From assembly GCA_964466475.1 (NCBI GenBank), contig CAYXNB010000002.1:1-53157 (forward strand): a stretch of DNA of 53,157 bases, in the 5' to 3' direction. Origin of the DNA: an uncultured Candidatus Saccharibacteria bacterium. GTDB taxonomy: Bacteria; Patescibacteriota; Minisyncoccia; UBA6257; GWB1-50-10. Positions 1 to 52,756 of this stretch are shown here, one piece after another. How positions within the stretch are numbered: position 1 is the first letter of the stretch; each line of letters starts with the position of its first letter. Below the pieces are notes generated by a model. The model made no database searches, was not told the origin of the DNA, and saw only the letters and a list, made by a program, of their open reading frames with translations. Position numbers and translations under genes: made by a program.

Positions 1-582
1 TGCACGCGGCGTCGCTCCATCAGGCTTTCGCCCATTGTGGAATATTCTCGACTGCGGCCACCCGTAGGTGTAGGGTCCGTGTCTCAGTACCCTCGTCGGA
101 GGTCAGGCTCTCACCTCTCCTACCCGTCATTGCCTTGGTAGGCCATTACCCTACCAACAAGCTGATGGGACCAAGGCCCCTCCTCAAGCGCAAACACTCT
201 CTTTTAAATATTCTTTGGAAATTTGAAAGCGATATAACGAGACAAGTTCACGAAACGACGAGGAAGGTGTGCTCTGCACTCCGAGGAGGAGTGACAAAGA
301 ACTTGGCCGTTATATCGCTTCCCAAAGGGCGGGCGAATCTTGTCAAAATTCGCTCCGTCAAATTCCAAACAATATCTAAAAGAGAGTGTCCCTTTACCCT
401 TGCGGGACTATCGGGTATTAGCTCGCCTTTCGGCGGGTTATCCCCGACTCGAGGGTAGGTTCCAAGGTATTACTGACTCGTTCGCCACTGGTTTGCTTCC
501 TTGCGGAAACAAACCCGTTTGACTTGCATGCCTTATCCACGCCGCCAGCGTTCGTCCTGGACCAGGATCAAATCCTCAAGAA
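1..582 (-). rRNA. rrs: 16S ribosomal RNA, 5' portion (gene continues beyond window start)
   Basis: Reverse complement reads gaggatttgatcctggtccaggacgaacgctggcggcgtgg (5' end, about 577-537) and cctacgggtggccgcagtcgagaatattccacaatgggcgaaagcctgatggagcgacgccgcgtgca (about 70-1). These are classic 16S conserved blocks. ORFs called here are spurious. Confidence 0.95.
193..390 (-). other. About 190-nt structured insertion (expansion segment or intervening sequence) inside 16S rRNA, V2/helix-10 region
   Basis: About 575 nt are needed to reach the block that lies near position 400 in E. coli numbering. The extra segment is closed by a 19-bp stem (194-212 with 371-389) and holds a second about 20-bp stem (229-249 with 299-318). 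It has no credible ORF. Confidence 0.75.
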
Positions 583-740
583 AAATCTTGGGATGACAAA
601 AAAACTCTTTTATTACTCTTTGTTTGTTTACTTAATTTGGCTTATTTACCCCTCTCTTTGCAAAGCAAAGTGTGGGGTTGCTACATCAGTTTTCAAAGAC
701 CGGTCGGGCAGAAAAAAAGAACCGCTTCAGGGCATTGTCT

Positions 741-27203: not shown

Positions 27204-27432
27204 GAATCTCTCCTTATGATTGAGAAGCAACTCTCGCAGACGCGCCGGGCTTGGTCCCCGAAGGGGCCGGCGCGTCGAGAGCGTAGTGGGTTCATTCGTC
27301 CGGGGGATGAATGAACAGGCGACAAACCTTGTGCGATAGAATGTCGCCCGGGAGCGAAGAGTCGCTGGAAGATTCGTTCGTCCGGGGGACGAACGAATGA
27401 CACCCGGTGCTTCGAAACATAAGGAGAGATTC
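27204..27432 (+). ncRNA. Family-A structured element, copy 1 (unknown class)
   Basis: A 15-bp closing stem (27204-27218 with 27418-27432). A 70-nt core is 97% identical to 51479-51548, and a conserved 3' segment ccggtgcttcgaaaca is also shared. Three extra hairpins lie in the variable region. Confidence 0.6.
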
Positions 27433-30773: not shown

Positions 30774-30832
30774 AGTAAAGAAAATACACGAAAAAAAGAA
30801 TTAGGTCAACTCGACATTAGATTCGCATTAAA

Positions 30833-31062
30833 GGAAACTTCGCCGCAGTGTTCGAGCGGATTCTGAGGCCGTTTTGGCATGGTCTCCGACCCGCCGTCCG
30901 CCGACTGGCGGAGGCGGGGAGGAGCAAAACGGCCGAGGCCTCGGAGCAAGCGGCTGGGCCCAATCGTCCGGGGGACGATTGGGCGGGCAAGCAACCGAAG
31001 TTATAATCCGTGCTTGCCCGGGACCGAGCGAGAATGAGCGAGGACACTGCGGCGGAGTTTCC
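30833..31062 (+). ncRNA. Family-B structured element, copy 1 (unknown class)
   Basis: An 18-bp closing stem (30833-30850 with 31045-31062) encloses at least 4 internal helices. Differences from the 50244-50452 copy are compensatory. G-U pairs favour the + strand. Confidence 0.65.
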
Positions 31063-31070
31063 GTACCAGC

Positions 31071-36100: not shown

Positions 36101-39100
36101 TCACCCCTCGCACGACTCACAAACCTCCCCTACAACCTGCACCTCTCGGGCCGCTTCGTCAAGCGGCAAAGATCCCGAATGCACTGAAGGACTGCCTTTT
36201 GTCAAGCTAAAATTCGCTGCGTCCGCGATCACTTCCGACGGACGCGCGGAAACCAAAACCGCCTCTCGTTCTTCGCGCGCCGCGGATTTCTGAGACGCAC
36301 CCTCCGCTTTCGAAGCGTCCTCGTATTTCTTGTTAATGTCAAGCGTGCTCTTTTCAATACCCGAGGCGGCGAGCGTCCGGAGATAATACGTGGTCTTAAG
36401 ACCCATGCTCCACGCGGCCATATAGATATCCGAAAGCGCCTTCCCGGACTTAGTGCTGGTAAAAATATTCAGCGACTGGCTCTGGTCAATCCATTTTCCG
36501 CGGTAGGCGGCATGTTTTAAAAGCCATATGGGTTCAACCTCAAACACCTCTTTGTATTTGGCGCGAAGTTCAGCCGGAATTTCCGCAATCGACTGAACGC
36601 TCCCGTCATAATACTTGATACGCAAAAGCATGGACTCGTCCCAGAGGCCCGCCCTCTGCAAATCCTCCACCAGATACTCGTTAATAATGGTAAATTCGCC
36701 GCTAAAGTTCGATTTGGTATAAACATTTTTATAAATAGGCTCGATGGAAGGAACGCATCCGTTGATATTCGCGTTTGTCGCGGTAGGGGCGATCGCCATG
36801 CAGTTTGAATTCCTCATGCCGTACATTCGCACATGTTCCCGGACGGGGGCCCAATCCATCCGTTCGCGAAGGTCCAGATGAGTGGATACGCCGCGCTCCT
36901 CCTCCAGAAGCCGGACCGTATCTACCGGAAAGATCCCGCGATCCCATTTCGAGCCCCGGTACGTCTCGTACGTCCCGCGCTCCTTGGCAAGTTCCGAGGA
37001 ACCGAGGACCGCATGATAAGAAATAAATTCCATAAGCCGGTCGGAAAGATCCACCGCCTCGTCAGAATCAAAGCGCATTTCCATAAGGTACAGGGCATCC
37101 TGAAATCCCATTAGTCCGAGACCTACCGGCCGGTGCCGCAAGTTTGAATACTTGGCCTCCGGCGTAGGATAAAAATTGGGATCAATGACATTATCAAGCA
37201 TGCGCATCGCGGTCCGCACGCTCCGTCCAAGTTCCTCCCAATTAAACTGAGTTCCGGAAATATGCCGCGAAAGATTGACCGATCCCAGGTTGCAGACCGC
37301 GGTCTCGTCGCGCGAAGTGTTCAGGGTGATTTCCGTGCATAAATTTGAACTATGCACCACCCCCGCGTGATCCTGCGGACTCCTCACGTTGCAGGCATCT
37401 TTGAACGTAATCCAAGGATGTCCCGTTTCGTAGAGTTGAGTAAGCATCTTTCGCCACAAATCTCGCGCCCTCATCCTCTTCCAAAGATTAATCCTCCCCT
37501 GGTCCGCGAGCGCCTCATATTCCTCGTAACGCTTCTTGAAGGCGGCGCCGTACATATGGTGCAGATCCGGAGTTTCATCCGGAGAAAAAAGCGTCCATTC
37601 GCCGTCATCGCGAATCCGCTCCATAAAAAGATCCGGAACCCAGTTCGCGGTATTGGTGTCATGGGTTCGTCTCCGGTCGTCTCCGGTATTTTTACGAAGC
37701 TCCAAAAACGCCTCAATATCATAATGCCACGTCTCGAGATACACGCACGTGGCGCCCCTGCGCTTTCCGGATCTGTTTATTGCCGCAGTGGTCGCGTCCA
37801 CGATCTTCAAAAAAGGAATGACTCCCTGACTCCCCACGTTCGTGGATTTGATCATCGCCCCGGTTCCGCGAAGATTCGTCCAGTCGTTCGCCACTCCCCC
37901 GCTCCACTTGGAAAGTTGGGCATTATCGCCCACACACTTGAAAATATGGTGCAGATCGTCCTCCACCGTGGTCAGAAAGCAGGAGCTCATCTGGGGATGC
38001 TTGGTGCCCGCGTGAAAAAGCGTGGGCGTGGAAGGCACATAATAAAGTTGGGACATTACATTGTAAAACTCAACGGCCCGATCCTCGGGATTCGGCTCAT
38101 CAAGCGCCAGCCCCATGGCAACCCGCATCCAGAAGTACTGGGGAACCTCCAGGTGATTTTGGTCGTAATCGCGCAAAAAATAGCGGTCATACAGGGTCTG
38201 CGCTCCCAAATACTTCAAAAACGAATCCCGCTCGATCTGAATGGCATCCTGCAAGCGGACAAAATCAAAATCAAGCATCCGTTCTTCCAGTCGCCCGCAT
38301 TCCACCCCCCTTCGAATGGCGCGCGCGAGCCCCTTGCGATACTGCGCGTCAAATCCCTCCTCAAACTCCGCAAGTCCCAAAACGTCTTTATAGAGATCGT
38401 TAAAAAGCAGTTTTGCGGAAAGATAAGAATACAAAGGGTCCCGCTCAATACGCCCGCGCAAAACCATAATAACGGCCTTGTTGATATCACGGGTCGAAAT
38501 GCCGTCATACAAATTTTTCTTCGCCTCCTCGATAATCTCGACAAGCGAGGTCTCCTCTATAGCGGATCCGAAAACACCTCGCAAAAATTCGGCAATATGA
38601 GAGATGTCAAAAAACGCCTGCGTGCCGTCGCGCTTCTTCACGCGGATCTCGCTCCGCTCGATCTTTTGCAAAAGATCATGCCGTCGCGCCTCGCGCGCCC
38701 GCTCACGCTCTTTGCGGTATAAAATATACGATTTCGAAACCTCAAAAAGCCCGTGCTCCGCTATTTTCCGCTCTACGGAATCCTGCACATCCTCAACCGA
38801 AGGCACGACACCGCGAAAACGTGATTCAATATCCTCCACCACGCGATCCGTAATGGCTCCGACAACAACGGAAGAAACGGAAACCCCGGTCGCCGCGCAA
38901 GCCCGTTCAATCACCCGCTCGATCTTGGCCGGATCAAACTCCACAATACGGCCATCGCGCTTTTTCACCTGCTCCACCCTGCCATCGCGAATAAGGTAGG
39001 CGGCGTGCCGCAGGGCGATCTGCCGATCCCGCTCCTCACGCAATTTTTCACGCTCCTTGCGGTATAAAATATATGATTTCGCGACGTGAAAAAGTCCGTT

Positions 39101-39328
39101 TTCCGCGAGCACCCGCTCCACCGTGTCCTGCACGTTTTCAACTGAAGGAGTTGCCTCCTCGAAATCAGGCTTTAATTTCTGGATCACCTTCCCGGCAAGC
39201 GCGCGCAGCAATTCAGGGGTATAAGGGGTATGGGTCGCCAGGCACGCCTTCTCTATTGCGTGCTCGATCCTCGTCCGATCAAACGATACAACCCGGCCGT
39301 CCCGCTTGGTGATATATTGTATAGACAT
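36101..39328 (-). CDS. nrdA: Class I ribonucleotide reductase alpha subunit with three N-terminal ATP-cone-like repeats
   Basis: Catalytic SSNLCTEI and a C-terminal CESCEG tail. ATP-cone starts are ITKRDGRVVSFDRTRIEHAIEKA, VKKRDGRIVEFDPAKIERVIERA and VKKRDGTQAFFDISHI. Confidence 0.95.
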   Translation of the reverse strand: MSIQYITKRDGRVVSFDRTRIEHAIEKACLATHTPYTPELLRALAGKVIQKLKPDFEEATPSVENVQDTVERVLAENGLFHVAKSYILYRKEREKLREERDRQIALRHAAYLIRDGRVEQVKKRDGRIVEFDPAKIERVIERACAATGVSVSSVVVGAITDRVVEDIESRFRGVVPSVEDVQDSVERKIAEHGLFEVSKSYILYRKERERAREARRHDLLQKIERSEIRVKKRDGTQAFFDISHIAEFLRGVFGSAIEETSLVEIIEEAKKNLYDGISTRDINKAVIMVLRGRIERDPLYSYLSAKLLFNDLYKDVLGLAEFEEGFDAQYRKGLARAIRRGVECGRLEERMLDFDFVRLQDAIQIERDSFLKYLGAQTLYDRYFLRDYDQNHLEVPQYFWMRVAMGLALDEPNPEDRAVEFYNVMSQLYYVPSTPTLFHAGTKHPQMSSCFLTTVEDDLHHIFKCVGDNAQLSKWSGGVANDWTNLRGTGAMIKSTNVGSQGVIPFLKIVDATTAAINRSGKRRGATCVYLETWHYDIEAFLELRKNTGDDRRRTHDTNTANWVPDLFMERIRDDGEWTLFSPDETPDLHHMYGAAFKKRYEEYEALADQGRINLWKRMRARDLWRKMLTQLYETGHPWITFKDACNVRSPQDHAGVVHSSNLCTEITLNTSRDETAVCNLGSVNLSRHISGTQFNWEELGRSVRTAMRMLDNVIDPNFYPTPEAKYSNLRHRPVGLGLMGFQDALYLMEMRFDSDEAVDLSDRLMEFISYHAVLGSSELAKERGTYETYRGSKWDRGIFPVDTVRLLEEERGVSTHLDLRERMDWAPVREHVRMYGMRNSNCMAIAPTATNANINGCVPSIEPIYKNVYTKSNFSGEFTIINEYLVEDLQRAGLWDESMLLRIKYYDGSVQSIAEIPAELRAKYKEVFEVEPIWLLKHAAYRGKWIDQSQSLNIFTSTKSGKALSDIYMAAWSMGLKTTYYLRTLAASGIEKSTLDINKKYEDASKAEGASQKSAAREEREAVLVSARPSEVIADAANFSLTKGSPSVHSGSLPLDEAAREVQVVGEVCESCEG

Positions 39329-50225: not shown

Positions 50226-50243
50226 AAAACACGCAATCGGAAA

Positions 50244-50452
50244 AGAAACTCTGCCGCGGTGTTCGAGCGGATTCTGAGGCCGTTTTGGCATGGTCTCCGA
50301 GCCGAGCGAGGAGCAAAACGGCCGAAGCCTCGGAGCGAGCGGCTGGGCCTAATTGTCCGGGGGACAATTAGGCGGGCAAGATACCGAAGTAATAAATCGA
50401 ATCTTGCCCTGGACCGAGCGAGAATGAGCGAGGGCACTGCGGCAGAGTTTCC
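50244..50452 (+). ncRNA. Family-B structured element, copy 2
   Basis: Same architecture as 30833-31062. Closing stem is 50244-50261 with 50435-50452. It has a shorter apical hairpin and compensatory substitutions in three helices. Confidence 0.65.
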
Positions 50453-50467
50453 GTGCGTCGCAACACC

Positions 50468-50956: not shown

Positions 50957-51448
50957 TCAACAATCCTGCGTCCGTAAAAATTCAAAAAATTCGTCAAAAG
51001 AAGTAAAGATGGCTCCGCGCTTCAAAATCATATGTAACACATGCGCGTTTATGGAAACCGGATCGGATTCATATACCAAGTACACCGGCTTTTCGTAATC
51101 AAACGCTTTCTGCATTTCGCGAAGCGTCCCGCCCATGGCGGGACGCTCGGGAAAATGTGCTATTAAAAAATCACTGCCAAGCACCGCCTCATGATTCCAC
51201 CTCCAGATATCATCCATAAGCGAAGTAAAAAGTGTCCAGTCATGAGATTTTTTGGCGTTATCAACTTTCTCTCGTCGTTCATAAATATCCGATGTTCCTC
51301 CTAAAACAACGTTTCCCGTAGGATCAAATACGCCAATACCAAACGCGGCAAGACGAGGGACAACGCTCTCCCTCCATCCCTTCCCATAATCCGAAGCACC
51401 CTCAATGGGGCCAATAAGATATGCTGTTTTTTTATATTTGGAAAGCAT
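50957..51448 (-). CDS. Nucleoside 2-deoxyribosyltransferase-like protein
   Basis: KTAYLIGPIEGASDYGKGWR...FDP and the later GTLREMQKA pattern. Start moved to 51448 because the annotated N-terminal extension reads through the family-A element. Confidence 0.5.
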   Translation of the reverse strand: MLSKYKKTAYLIGPIEGASDYGKGWRESVVPRLAAFGIGVFDPTGNVVLGGTSDIYERREKVDNAKKSHDWTLFTSLMDDIWRWNHEAVLGSDFLIAHFPERPAMGGTLREMQKAFDYEKPVYLVYESDPVSINAHVLHMILKRGAIFTSFDEFFEFLRTQDC

Positions 51449-51462
51449 AATAAAATCTGAAA

Positions 51463-51607
51463 GCGCAAGGCGGTTTTGATTTAGAAGCAACTCTCGGAGA
51501 CGCGCCGGGCTTGGTCCCCGAAGGGGCCGGCGCGTCGAGAGCGTAGTGCTGCGCCGTGCCGCCGGAGCACGGCGACAGCCGGTGCTTCGAAACAAAACCG
51601 CTTGCGC
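51463..51607 (+). ncRNA. Family-A structured element, copy 2 (compact version)
   Basis: The closing stem (51463-51478 with 51593-51607) has a different sequence from copy 1 but is still complementary. The core is identical. A single hairpin gccgtgc..gcacggc replaces the three hairpins of copy 1. Confidence 0.6.
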
Positions 51608-51616
51608 GCAAAATCT

Positions 51617-52756
51617 CTACCGCAACTCCGCCCCAAACTGCTCCGCCGTCTTTTTGTAAATCTCGCCCTGGATCGCGTCCACCTCGCTTGAAAGAAGCGT
51701 CCTCTCGTTGCTTCGGTACACGATTCGGTACGTATAACTCACGCGATCTTTCCCGAATTTCTTCTCATCTTCGTATTTGTCCAAAAGCTCCACCTCCTCC
51801 ACCAGGTCCCCGCCCAGCTCCCGGATCAAATCAAAATAATTGTTCGGCACAAAGTCCTTCCCCACCACAAACGAAATGTCCCGCGTAACCGACGGATACT
51901 TGCTCACCTCCTTAAACTCCTGCCCCAGTTTTAACTGCCGCGTAACGCGCGGATCCTCTGACCACAAAAGCCGGATGTCCGGCAAGCCCATGCTCAAAAT
52001 CGCGAGCCGTTCCAAACCGAATCCGAATGCCCAGCCGTTATATATTTCCGGATCAATATCAAGCGACTTCAACACGTTCGGATGCACAAGTCCGCTCCCC
52101 AAGACTTCCACCCAGCTCCCGTCCGCCTTTTTAATTTCCATTTCGCAACTCGGGTCAGTGTACGGAAACGAATCAATGTTAAAACGATACTCCACGGCCG
52201 GACCGAAAACCGCCTTCGCCACATCCGCTAAAATTTCCTTCAGATCATCTACCGCGTAGACCTTCTCGGATTTGGGACGAAGCCCCCACCCGTCTATCTG
52301 ATGAAACACGTTCATGTGTCGCCTGTCGATCTCGTCTTTGCGATACACCTTGCCGAACGAAAGCGAGCCAACCGGCTCCCCCCTCCCCAAACGCTCGCGC
52401 ACGGACCGCTCGTTCACATAGTAATACCACATGACCGTGGTGTGCGTACGCAAAATATTTTTTTCATCCACATAGTATGTATCAGAACGAGACCGCGCCG
52501 GATGATCCGCCGGAAAATTAAAAAGATCAAAACTGATGTCAGCAGGCACGATCTCCGGCACCGTAATCACATCGAGTTCCGCCATACCCGGAATCTTCAA
52601 AATCCTCTGCACCAGTTCCCGCAAAGGGCTTCCCTCCTGCCGCGAAAGATCCGGCATATCCAAATACCGCCTCATCCGCAGGGCCTCGAAATCAGTGCGT
52701 GATTCAAGCTCCTTCCGCAGCCGCGCCTCGTCTTTGGAAACAATTTCAATAATCAT
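51617..52756 (-). CDS. pheS: Phenylalanyl-tRNA synthetase alpha subunit
   Basis: Class II motifs: FPADHPARS, LRTHTT, FHQIDGW and GFGLERL. Confidence 0.9.
   Translation of the reverse strand: MIIEIVSKDEARLRKELESRTDFEALRMRRYLDMPDLSRQEGSPLRELVQRILKIPGMAELDVITVPEIVPADISFDLFNFPADHPARSRSDTYYVDEKNILRTHTTVMWYYYVNERSVRERLGRGEPVGSLSFGKVYRKDEIDRRHMNVFHQIDGWGLRPKSEKVYAVDDLKEILADVAKAVFGPAVEYRFNIDSFPYTDPSCEMEIKKADGSWVEVLGSGLVHPNVLKSLDIDPEIYNGWAFGFGLERLAILSMGLPDIRLLWSEDPRVTRQLKLGQEFKEVSKYPSVTRDISFVVGKDFVPNNYFDLIRELGGDLVEEVELLDKYEDEKKFGKDRVSYTYRIVYRSNERTLLSSEVDAIQGEIYKKTAEQFGAELR

Follow-up and report, generated by a model that had tools for sequence, protein, structure and literature searches.

A candidate mobile repeat with a conserved three-way junction beside pheS in a CPR/Patescibacteria genome

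The element that separates pheS from its downstream neighbour at positions 51463-51607 of the window (the whole 53,157-nt stretch of DNA that was analysed) recurs at a second site in the window and in other genomes. We put at roughly one in two the probability that this element, called copy 2 below, is one member of an undescribed, dispersed and non-autonomous family of structured, probably mobile repeats in CPR/Patescibacteria. Compensated helices and invariant junctions across distant bins argue that a single-strand fold has long been under constraint, and a patchy, multi-copy occurrence in both orientations, with gain and loss at orthologous sites, decay and no link to any gene, argues for a mobile non-autonomous element. 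Such a family would spread within and between genomes, landing in either orientation in intergenic spacers that are very short. Part of its closing helix would travel with the element, and the rest would consist of, or be a copy of, the local spacer, so that identical cores can bear unrelated stems. The conserved junction would be recognised on one strand by a trans-acting factor; candidates for this factor are a transposase acting on single-stranded DNA, a reverse transcriptase and an enzyme of RNA processing.

Copy 2 and its neighbours consist of the following parts.

50957..51448, - strand: 163-aa ORF, downstream of pheS, start codon 14 nt from copy 2
51463-51607, + strand: copy 2, whole element, 145 bases
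51463..51478, + strand: P1 5' arm GCGCAAGGCGGTTTTG, pairing with 51593-51607, one bulged G
51479..51489, + strand: internal loop ATTTA, then P2 5' strand GAAGCA
51491..51541, + strand: P3, consisting of P3a, a GAG bulge, P3b, a 7-nt bulge and P3c
51542..51550, + strand: junction strand CGTAGTGCT, containing the invariant GTAG
51551..51576, + strand: P4 hairpin GCGCCGTGC-CGCCGGA-GCACGGCG(A)C, loop consensus CGCNGGA
51577..51592, + strand: junction AGCCGG, P2 3' strand TGCTTC and GAAA
51593..51607, + strand: P1 3' arm CAAAACCGCTTGCGC, which also adjoins other flanks in the source metagenome
51617..52756, - strand: pheS, PheRS alpha core plus FDX-ACB domain, stop codon 9 nt from copy 2

The closing stem P1 comprises 15 bp and the one bulged G. 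In the internal loop, ATTTA stands where the family has the consensus UUGA, which forms the 5' side of a tandem G·A motif; copy 2 carries a G-to-U change here, and GAAA on the opposite strand is the 3' side. A single A lies between GAAGCA and P3a, which is CTCTCG/CGAGAG and invariant in the family. P3b (ACGCGCCGG/CCGGCGCGT) covaries between genomes, and the P3c hairpin (CCCCGAAGGGG) is preceded by the invariant 7-nt bulge GCTTGGT. C51549 pairs with G51578, a position occupied by A-U, G-C or C-G in other members, and the 3' strand of P4 after the loop CGCCGGA reads GCACGGCGAC. The earlier note had described this last part as a variable region reduced to one hairpin; the hairpin is present, but it is the conserved P4 of the family, and it is copy 1 that is unusual.

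Both flanking genes lie on the - strand, as had been stated, and copy 2 is antisense to them, which also bears out the statement that it cannot be a simple cis leader in both places. The 379-aa pheS product joins a class II core domain to a C-terminal FDX-ACB anticodon-binding domain, a single-chain architecture that recalls mitochondrial-type PheRS, unlike the usual bacterial alpha subunit. The neighbour called NDT-like is indeed a - strand gene, but its identity as NDT is weakly backed, by a Pfam match of E = 0.01 that falls below the cut-off. Neither a promoter nor a terminator consensus was found beside copy 2. The only transcript of copy 2 is most likely its reverse complement, as part of the pheS operon mRNA; this strand keeps the helices (-90 kcal/mol) and loses the sense-specific motifs. 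Copy 2 is probably a passenger without a regulatory role, which as a stem-loop between cistrons could at most influence how the mRNA is processed or how stable it is.

The second copy in the window is longer.

27205..27431, + strand: copy 1, between cysS and dnaB, co-directional with both
27289-27366, + strand: three extra hairpins inserted in copy 1
27372-27398, + strand: copy 1 equivalent of P4

The earlier note had reported a shared core with unrelated but complementary closing stems in the two copies, and this was reproduced with exact coordinates. A 56-nt core pattern matched the window only at 27231-27286 and 51491-51546, with one mismatch, where no match is expected by chance. Over 75 nt the copies are 96% identical (repeat family D3), and the 3' CCGGTGCTTCGAAACA is common to both. 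Their stems, AATCTCTCCTTATG/CATAAGGAGAGATT in copy 1 and GCGCAAGGCGGTTTTG/CAAAACCGCTTGCGC in copy 2, are unrelated in sequence, and each is fully paired. The 3' arm of P1 in copy 1, CATAAGGAGAGATT, includes the Shine-Dalgarno sequence of dnaB. Relative to shuffled sequence, folding z-scores were -6.0 for the + strand and -7.9 for the - strand of copy 2, and -7.8 for copy 1. With its three inserted hairpins, copy 1 is a derived form of the family. A covariance model detected no copy in the 53-kb window beyond these two, and closing stems of either type standing "empty", without the element, were not found elsewhere in it.

We searched one genome per species, about 185,000 species in all, with a 24-nt anchor pattern that had first been checked on the window. 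Matches occurred in only three species genomes. The mapping of copies in relatives, which the earlier note had proposed as a check, yielded three homologues and one divergent member, with a patchy distribution.

L009:5665-5806: homologue, bin labelled Saccharibacteria
L010:7482-7618: homologue, Minisyncoccia bin, peat
L011:1386-1516: homologue, Minisyncoccia bin, peat
L026:1867-2012: divergent member, covariance model score 28.8 bits

The covariance model, built from the homologues, scored the sense strand at 134-155 bits, compared to 12-19 bits for the antisense strand. Elements in the family are 130-230 nt long and share one fold, in which a long P1 (12-22 bp) leads through the tandem G·A motif (UGA/GAA, in copy 2 UUA/GAA) and a short P2 to a three-way junction carrying P3 and P4. 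P2 is AGCA/UGCU and is longer in the window copies by a paired GA/UC insertion. P3a (CUCUCG/CGAGAG) is invariant among members and is followed by an equally invariant GAG bulge; P3b, of 8-9 bp, differs wholly in sequence from genome to genome; the 7-nt bulge GCUUGGU is again invariant, and P3c is a variable hairpin. The strand CGUAGUG precedes P4 with its CGCNGGA loop, the strand ACANCCGG follows it, and P4 of copy 2 is accordingly a conserved hairpin of the family. The junction strands are thus constant, whereas compensatory changes have altered the sequence of P1, P3b, P3c and P4.

The earlier proposal of a conserved core with covarying helices therefore extends to other genomes. In an alignment fitted to the model, 98.5% of the cells were paired, and changes on both sides were seen in 26 of 43 pairs, compared to 5-6 in slid controls and to values in shuffles that never reached the observed ones, statistics that rest on 5-6 sequences. 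RNAalifold, run on a plain MAFFT alignment that was not fitted to the structure, returned the same fold with 23 compensated pairs; here the N of GUGNUGCGC pairs with the N of ACANCC as A-U, G-C or C-G. On the + sense strand the wobble cells comprise seven G·U and no A·C. This result indicates that the structure is read on the window + strand, as RNA or as single-stranded DNA. Two ideas concern invariant nucleotides of the fold: the GGA loop might act as a CsrA-type decoy, and the CCGG of J4/2 might form a pseudoknot with the P4 loop or with the GCUUGGU bulge.

Invariant junctions with randomised helices in Saccharibacteria-labelled, Minisyncoccia and Wolfebacteria-like bins are a classic signature of functional RNA and not of junk repeats. 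The strongest competitor of the mobile-repeat reading, possible though clearly less probable, is accordingly a functional structured RNA family (small RNA genes, cis-acting mRNA modules or a new ribozyme) in which the sense transcript is active and P1 merely has to be paired; copy 2 would then be either an independently transcribed antisense small RNA gene or a dead copy. Besides the invariant junctions and the full compensation of P1, P3b, P3c and P4, the restriction of wobbles to the sense strand, the conserved tandem G·A motif and the paired 2-bp insertion in P2 speak for it. So does the position of several copies: at five of six distinct loci the element runs in the direction of the surrounding genes, the dnaB Shine-Dalgarno sequence lies within P1 of copy 1, and the arm of the L010 copy stops at the dus start codon. 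A scattered multi-copy occurrence without gene association is, moreover, known for small ribozymes.

Against a functional RNA stand the searches of known families and of transcripts. Rfam 15 (4227 models) gave no match to copies 1 and 2 at the gathering score or even at E <= 10, nor to L009-L011 at E <= 5. A known catalytic core, hammerhead-like or other, was not seen by eye, and copy 2 has the promoterless and terminatorless surroundings described above. No RNA-seq run containing the window, L009, L010 or L011 was found, and the element was present in none of the RNA-seq runs searched. The narrower proposal of a riboswitch did not hold, because copy 2 is antisense, the L011 copy sits between convergent genes, and no downstream gene recurs: dnaB, a Lactamase_B_3 hydrolase, dus or nothing follows the element. 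The L009 copy lies about 78 nt from the next ORF.

The ends of P1 are the least conserved part of the element. Outer stems are unrelated in sequence among copy 1, copy 2, L010, L009/L011 and L026. The earlier description of a closing helix of free sequence needs correcting, however: the helix is not free at each locus, since the copy-2 stem recurs and one arm at L010 is native. In the same metagenome, contigs with the same 3' arm place the copy-2 stem beside at least two other flanks. A search of a representative protein library with the copy 2 antisense peptide retrieved a spurious antisense ORF, P0241, in which the stem is that of copy 2 but P4 and the flank are not; a chimeric six-frame peptide query for spurious ORFs across other copies gave no match. 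The stems of L009 and L011 are homologous and differ by one compensated change, though their neighbour genes differ. The outer 3' arm at L010, ATATAATCTAAAATCTTATG, has its homologue in the spacer native to L029 just upstream of dus, ATAGAATCTAGAATCTAGATTATG, and the 5' arm is a near-perfect inverted copy of the 3' arm. The recurrence of the copy-2 stem and the native origin of the L010 arm mean that "covariation" in P1 stems partly from insertion and propagation rather than from selection at each copy. Judged from these sequences, the inner P1 would belong to the element, and the outer P1 can be local sequence. The element may enter the dyad of an existing palindrome, or its insertion may make an inverted copy of the flank, and the composite of element and local stem could then propagate.

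The distribution of the element speaks for gain and loss. The nearest relatives of the window DnaB are in Patescibacteria (Wolfebacteria, Jorgensenbacteria, Paceibacteria), and in three relatives with 74-87% DnaB identity the cysS-dnaB spacer lacks the element; in two of the three it holds other hairpins, AT-rich long inverted repeats. The ftsX-dus spacer contains the element in L010 and only 0-31 nt in L022, L025 and L029; in L021 and L028 it is occupied by another kind of hairpin element. In L026, the same spacer contains the divergent member and a remnant of the family 5' half, AACTCTCGGAGGTGAAAAAGCTTG. This remnant (L026:1795-1825) is nearly identical to the P3 5' half of the L010 copy and lies 40 nt upstream of the divergent member, which points to turnover of elements within one spacer. 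About 300 kb of relatives' DNA contained no other copy. The element-free orthologous spacers, the absence from this DNA and the decayed L026 remnant all count against a functional RNA. Every copy observed is single, without clusters or inverted doublets, at a density of two per 53-kb window.

In the source subsurface metagenome, the core reached a depth of 550-780, about 20 times that of the flanks (22-34), whereas alternative P4 regions with their flanks had a depth of 18-35, equal to that of the host contig. This suggests about 20 copies, to which other species may contribute. The conserved 3' part of L009 had 2-5 times the depth of its flanks in its groundwater sample. Words of the element were present in DNA runs from groundwater, drinking water, peat, permafrost, soil and sediment. 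A joint marking filled and empty sites within one population was not present in the Logan contigs. No direct repeat that could be a target-site duplication surrounds any of the six copies or emerges from comparison with empty sites.

No transposase, RAYT, integrase or reverse transcriptase was found among about 55 ORFs of the window; the scanned ORFs of at least 70 aa have housekeeping functions or lack a Pfam match. None of these enzymes is encoded next to any copy. Phage and plasmid collections gave no match, and viral contigs, searched with two patterns, gave none or chance matches only.

The earlier note had pointed to the conserved GTAG as reminiscent of REP/BIME organisation, and we consider it unlikely, though less so than a host-evolved hairpin (see below), that the element is a REP/REPIN-like single-stranded DNA hairpin with a 5' GTAG, mobilised by a RAYT (Y1 HUH) protein encoded elsewhere. 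GCGTAGTG is invariant directly 5' of P4, a hairpin with a bulged A; strand-specific G·T tolerance suits single-stranded DNA as well as RNA; the element is multi-copy, intergenic and found in either orientation; and its hairpin modules form a mosaic with those of a second family, B. These likenesses to the RAYT-mobilised REP/BIME and REPIN of proteobacteria extend to strand-specific function. The invariant GTAG lies 3-4 nt 5' of P4 within a much larger conserved fold, however, and the conserved unit is a three-way junction of 130 nt (130-230 nt for whole elements) with long invariant strands, compared to a palindrome of 20-40 nt in REPs. A RAYT/Y1_Tnp domain is found neither in the 53-kb window nor among the genes listed for the fetched loci of relatives, the copies are sparse and single instead of clustered or in inverted pairs, and their junctions are identical across distant bins, whereas REPs are normally species-specific.

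A hairpin that evolved in place to serve the host between cistrons, as a terminator, an RNase III site or an mRNA stabiliser, with a functionless core and no mobility, is very improbable. Folding is strong on both strands, copy 2 lies only 9-14 nt from the flanking ORFs, and relatives have other long hairpins in the same spacers, all of which speaks for such a hairpin, as does the hairpin-closed insertion in the 16S gene of the same genome. It leaves unexplained why unrelated loci and different genomes should share near-identical cores and why unpaired nucleotides are invariant, and the U-tract signature of a terminator is absent at copy 2. As to the 16S gene, its 5' domain (Rfam positions 1-405) spans 583 nt (window 1-583, - strand) owing to an insertion of about 195 nt at 194-389. 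A 30-nt stem (90% complementary) closes this insertion, as in an rRNA intervening sequence, and no similarity to families A and B is seen in it.

Several known classes were compared and set aside. A MITE with terminal inverted repeats, including Correia/NEMIS, is contradicted by termini that are the least conserved part and by the lack of a target-site duplication, in keeping with the earlier note, which had argued against a terminal-inverted-repeat transposon. The catalytic core of the hammerhead has the consensus CUGANGA ... GAAA around three stems; the junction strands of the element (1, 9 and 8 nt) misfit this core by eye, and the Rfam search of the element gave no hit to the hammerhead or other small ribozymes. 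An integron attC site is contradicted by the sequence at the base of the stem, which misfits RYYYAAC ... GTTRRRY, and by the interior, which is conserved here and variable in attC. SRP RNA, 6S RNA, RNase P, tmRNA, 5S rRNA, T-box, Y RNA and twister misfit by Rfam or by their defining motifs.

The element is described neither in Rfam 15 nor in the literature searched in full text, and it differs from each of its nearest known counterparts in a defining respect. Like Correia/NEMIS of Neisseria and ERIC/IRU of enterobacteria, it is a hairpin repeat in short spacers (100-150 nt in those families) whose presence varies between relatives; those repeats are co-transcribed, and cutting of their stem by RNase III or RNase E can alter mRNA stability. 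They have conserved terminal inverted repeats, and Correia makes a TA duplication, whereas the termini of the present element are its most variable part and a conserved multi-branch fold makes up the interior. Rickettsia palindromic elements and mitochondrial GC-clusters and hairpins (sponge mtDNA, PMC2800124) likewise are GC-rich hairpins that invade small and reduced genomes, those of organisms dependent on a host, and encode no transposase, but they have no sequence relation to the element and no invariant junction core across distant hosts, and the Rickettsia elements often insert in frame into genes. With riboswitch aptamers and small ribozymes the element shares a closing P1, a three-way junction, invariant junction nucleotides, covarying helices and variable inserts, and it differs from them in matching none of the 4227 Rfam models and in having no consistent 5'-UTR position or regulated gene. 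Finally, insertion sequences that target palindromes (IS1397 and ISKpn1 in REP loops; IS110/IS1111) would acquire locus-specific complementary flanks by insertion at a hairpin centre, flanks such as are seen at L010 and perhaps at copies 1 and 2; those insertion sequences are autonomous and encode a transposase, whereas the element encodes nothing.

The two leading readings could also be combined, in that the three-way junction may be a new catalytic or ligand- or protein-binding RNA that rides on, or constitutes, a mobile element entering the dyads of intergenic hairpins. We regard this as rather unlikely, about as much so as REP-like mobilisation or slightly less. If true, the element could cut polycistronic mRNAs or free itself as a small RNA.

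Other repeats were observed in the same genomes. Family B is a second hairpin-closed element, present on the + strand of the window at 30830-31064 and 50241-50454 (214-235 nt, 90-94% identical), with relatives on the other strand at L021:9795-9950, L028:2970-3115 and L026:1700-1790, which lie antisense in the ftsX-dus spacer of other bins. With the family of copy 2 (family A) it shares a stem followed by a 7-nt bulge, GCAUGGU, and a hairpin, and also a hairpin with the loop GUCCGGGGGAC. Between L021 and L028 its closing stem differs by changes that compensate each other, and Rfam gave no match. In relatives without family A, AT-rich inverted repeats of units like ATTAGAAATTAGAGATT fill the cysS-dnaB and other spacers (L008:7972-8088, L008:6201-6377, L012:9864-10000), some with a GC-rich apical core. 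Intergenic hairpin elements thus seem to be general in the lineage. Three further features are of other kinds. The gyrA gene of the Saccharibacteria-labelled bin (L009:729-4544, - strand) bears an intein with a LAGLIDADG endonuclease domain. A 119-nt direct repeat of the window (38685-38803 and 39030-39148, 75% identity, 345 nt apart) lies inside the gene for the ribonucleotide reductase large subunit and represents its repeated ATP-cone domains. At L022:927-2311 and L023:936-2307, about 8 kb from ftsX-dus, an RVT_1 gene adjoins a weak bAvd-like match; the pair looks like a diversity-generating retroelement, and a link to the element was not seen.

CPR/Patescibacteria, which have tiny genomes, account for much of the diversity of bacteria, and to our knowledge almost nothing is known of their non-coding RNAs or repeats. 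The element joins the conservation and covariation of a functional RNA with the behaviour of a mobile repeat, which occurs patchily and in many copies and is gained and lost. Together with family B, it accounts for many GC-rich spacers of these bins that look "empty" and for genes spuriously extended at the N-terminus. Should it be a functional RNA, it would represent a new class with a well-defined three-way junction suited to biochemistry; if it is mobile, it would point to a mobilisation system that recognises structure, in genomes where transposases are very few.
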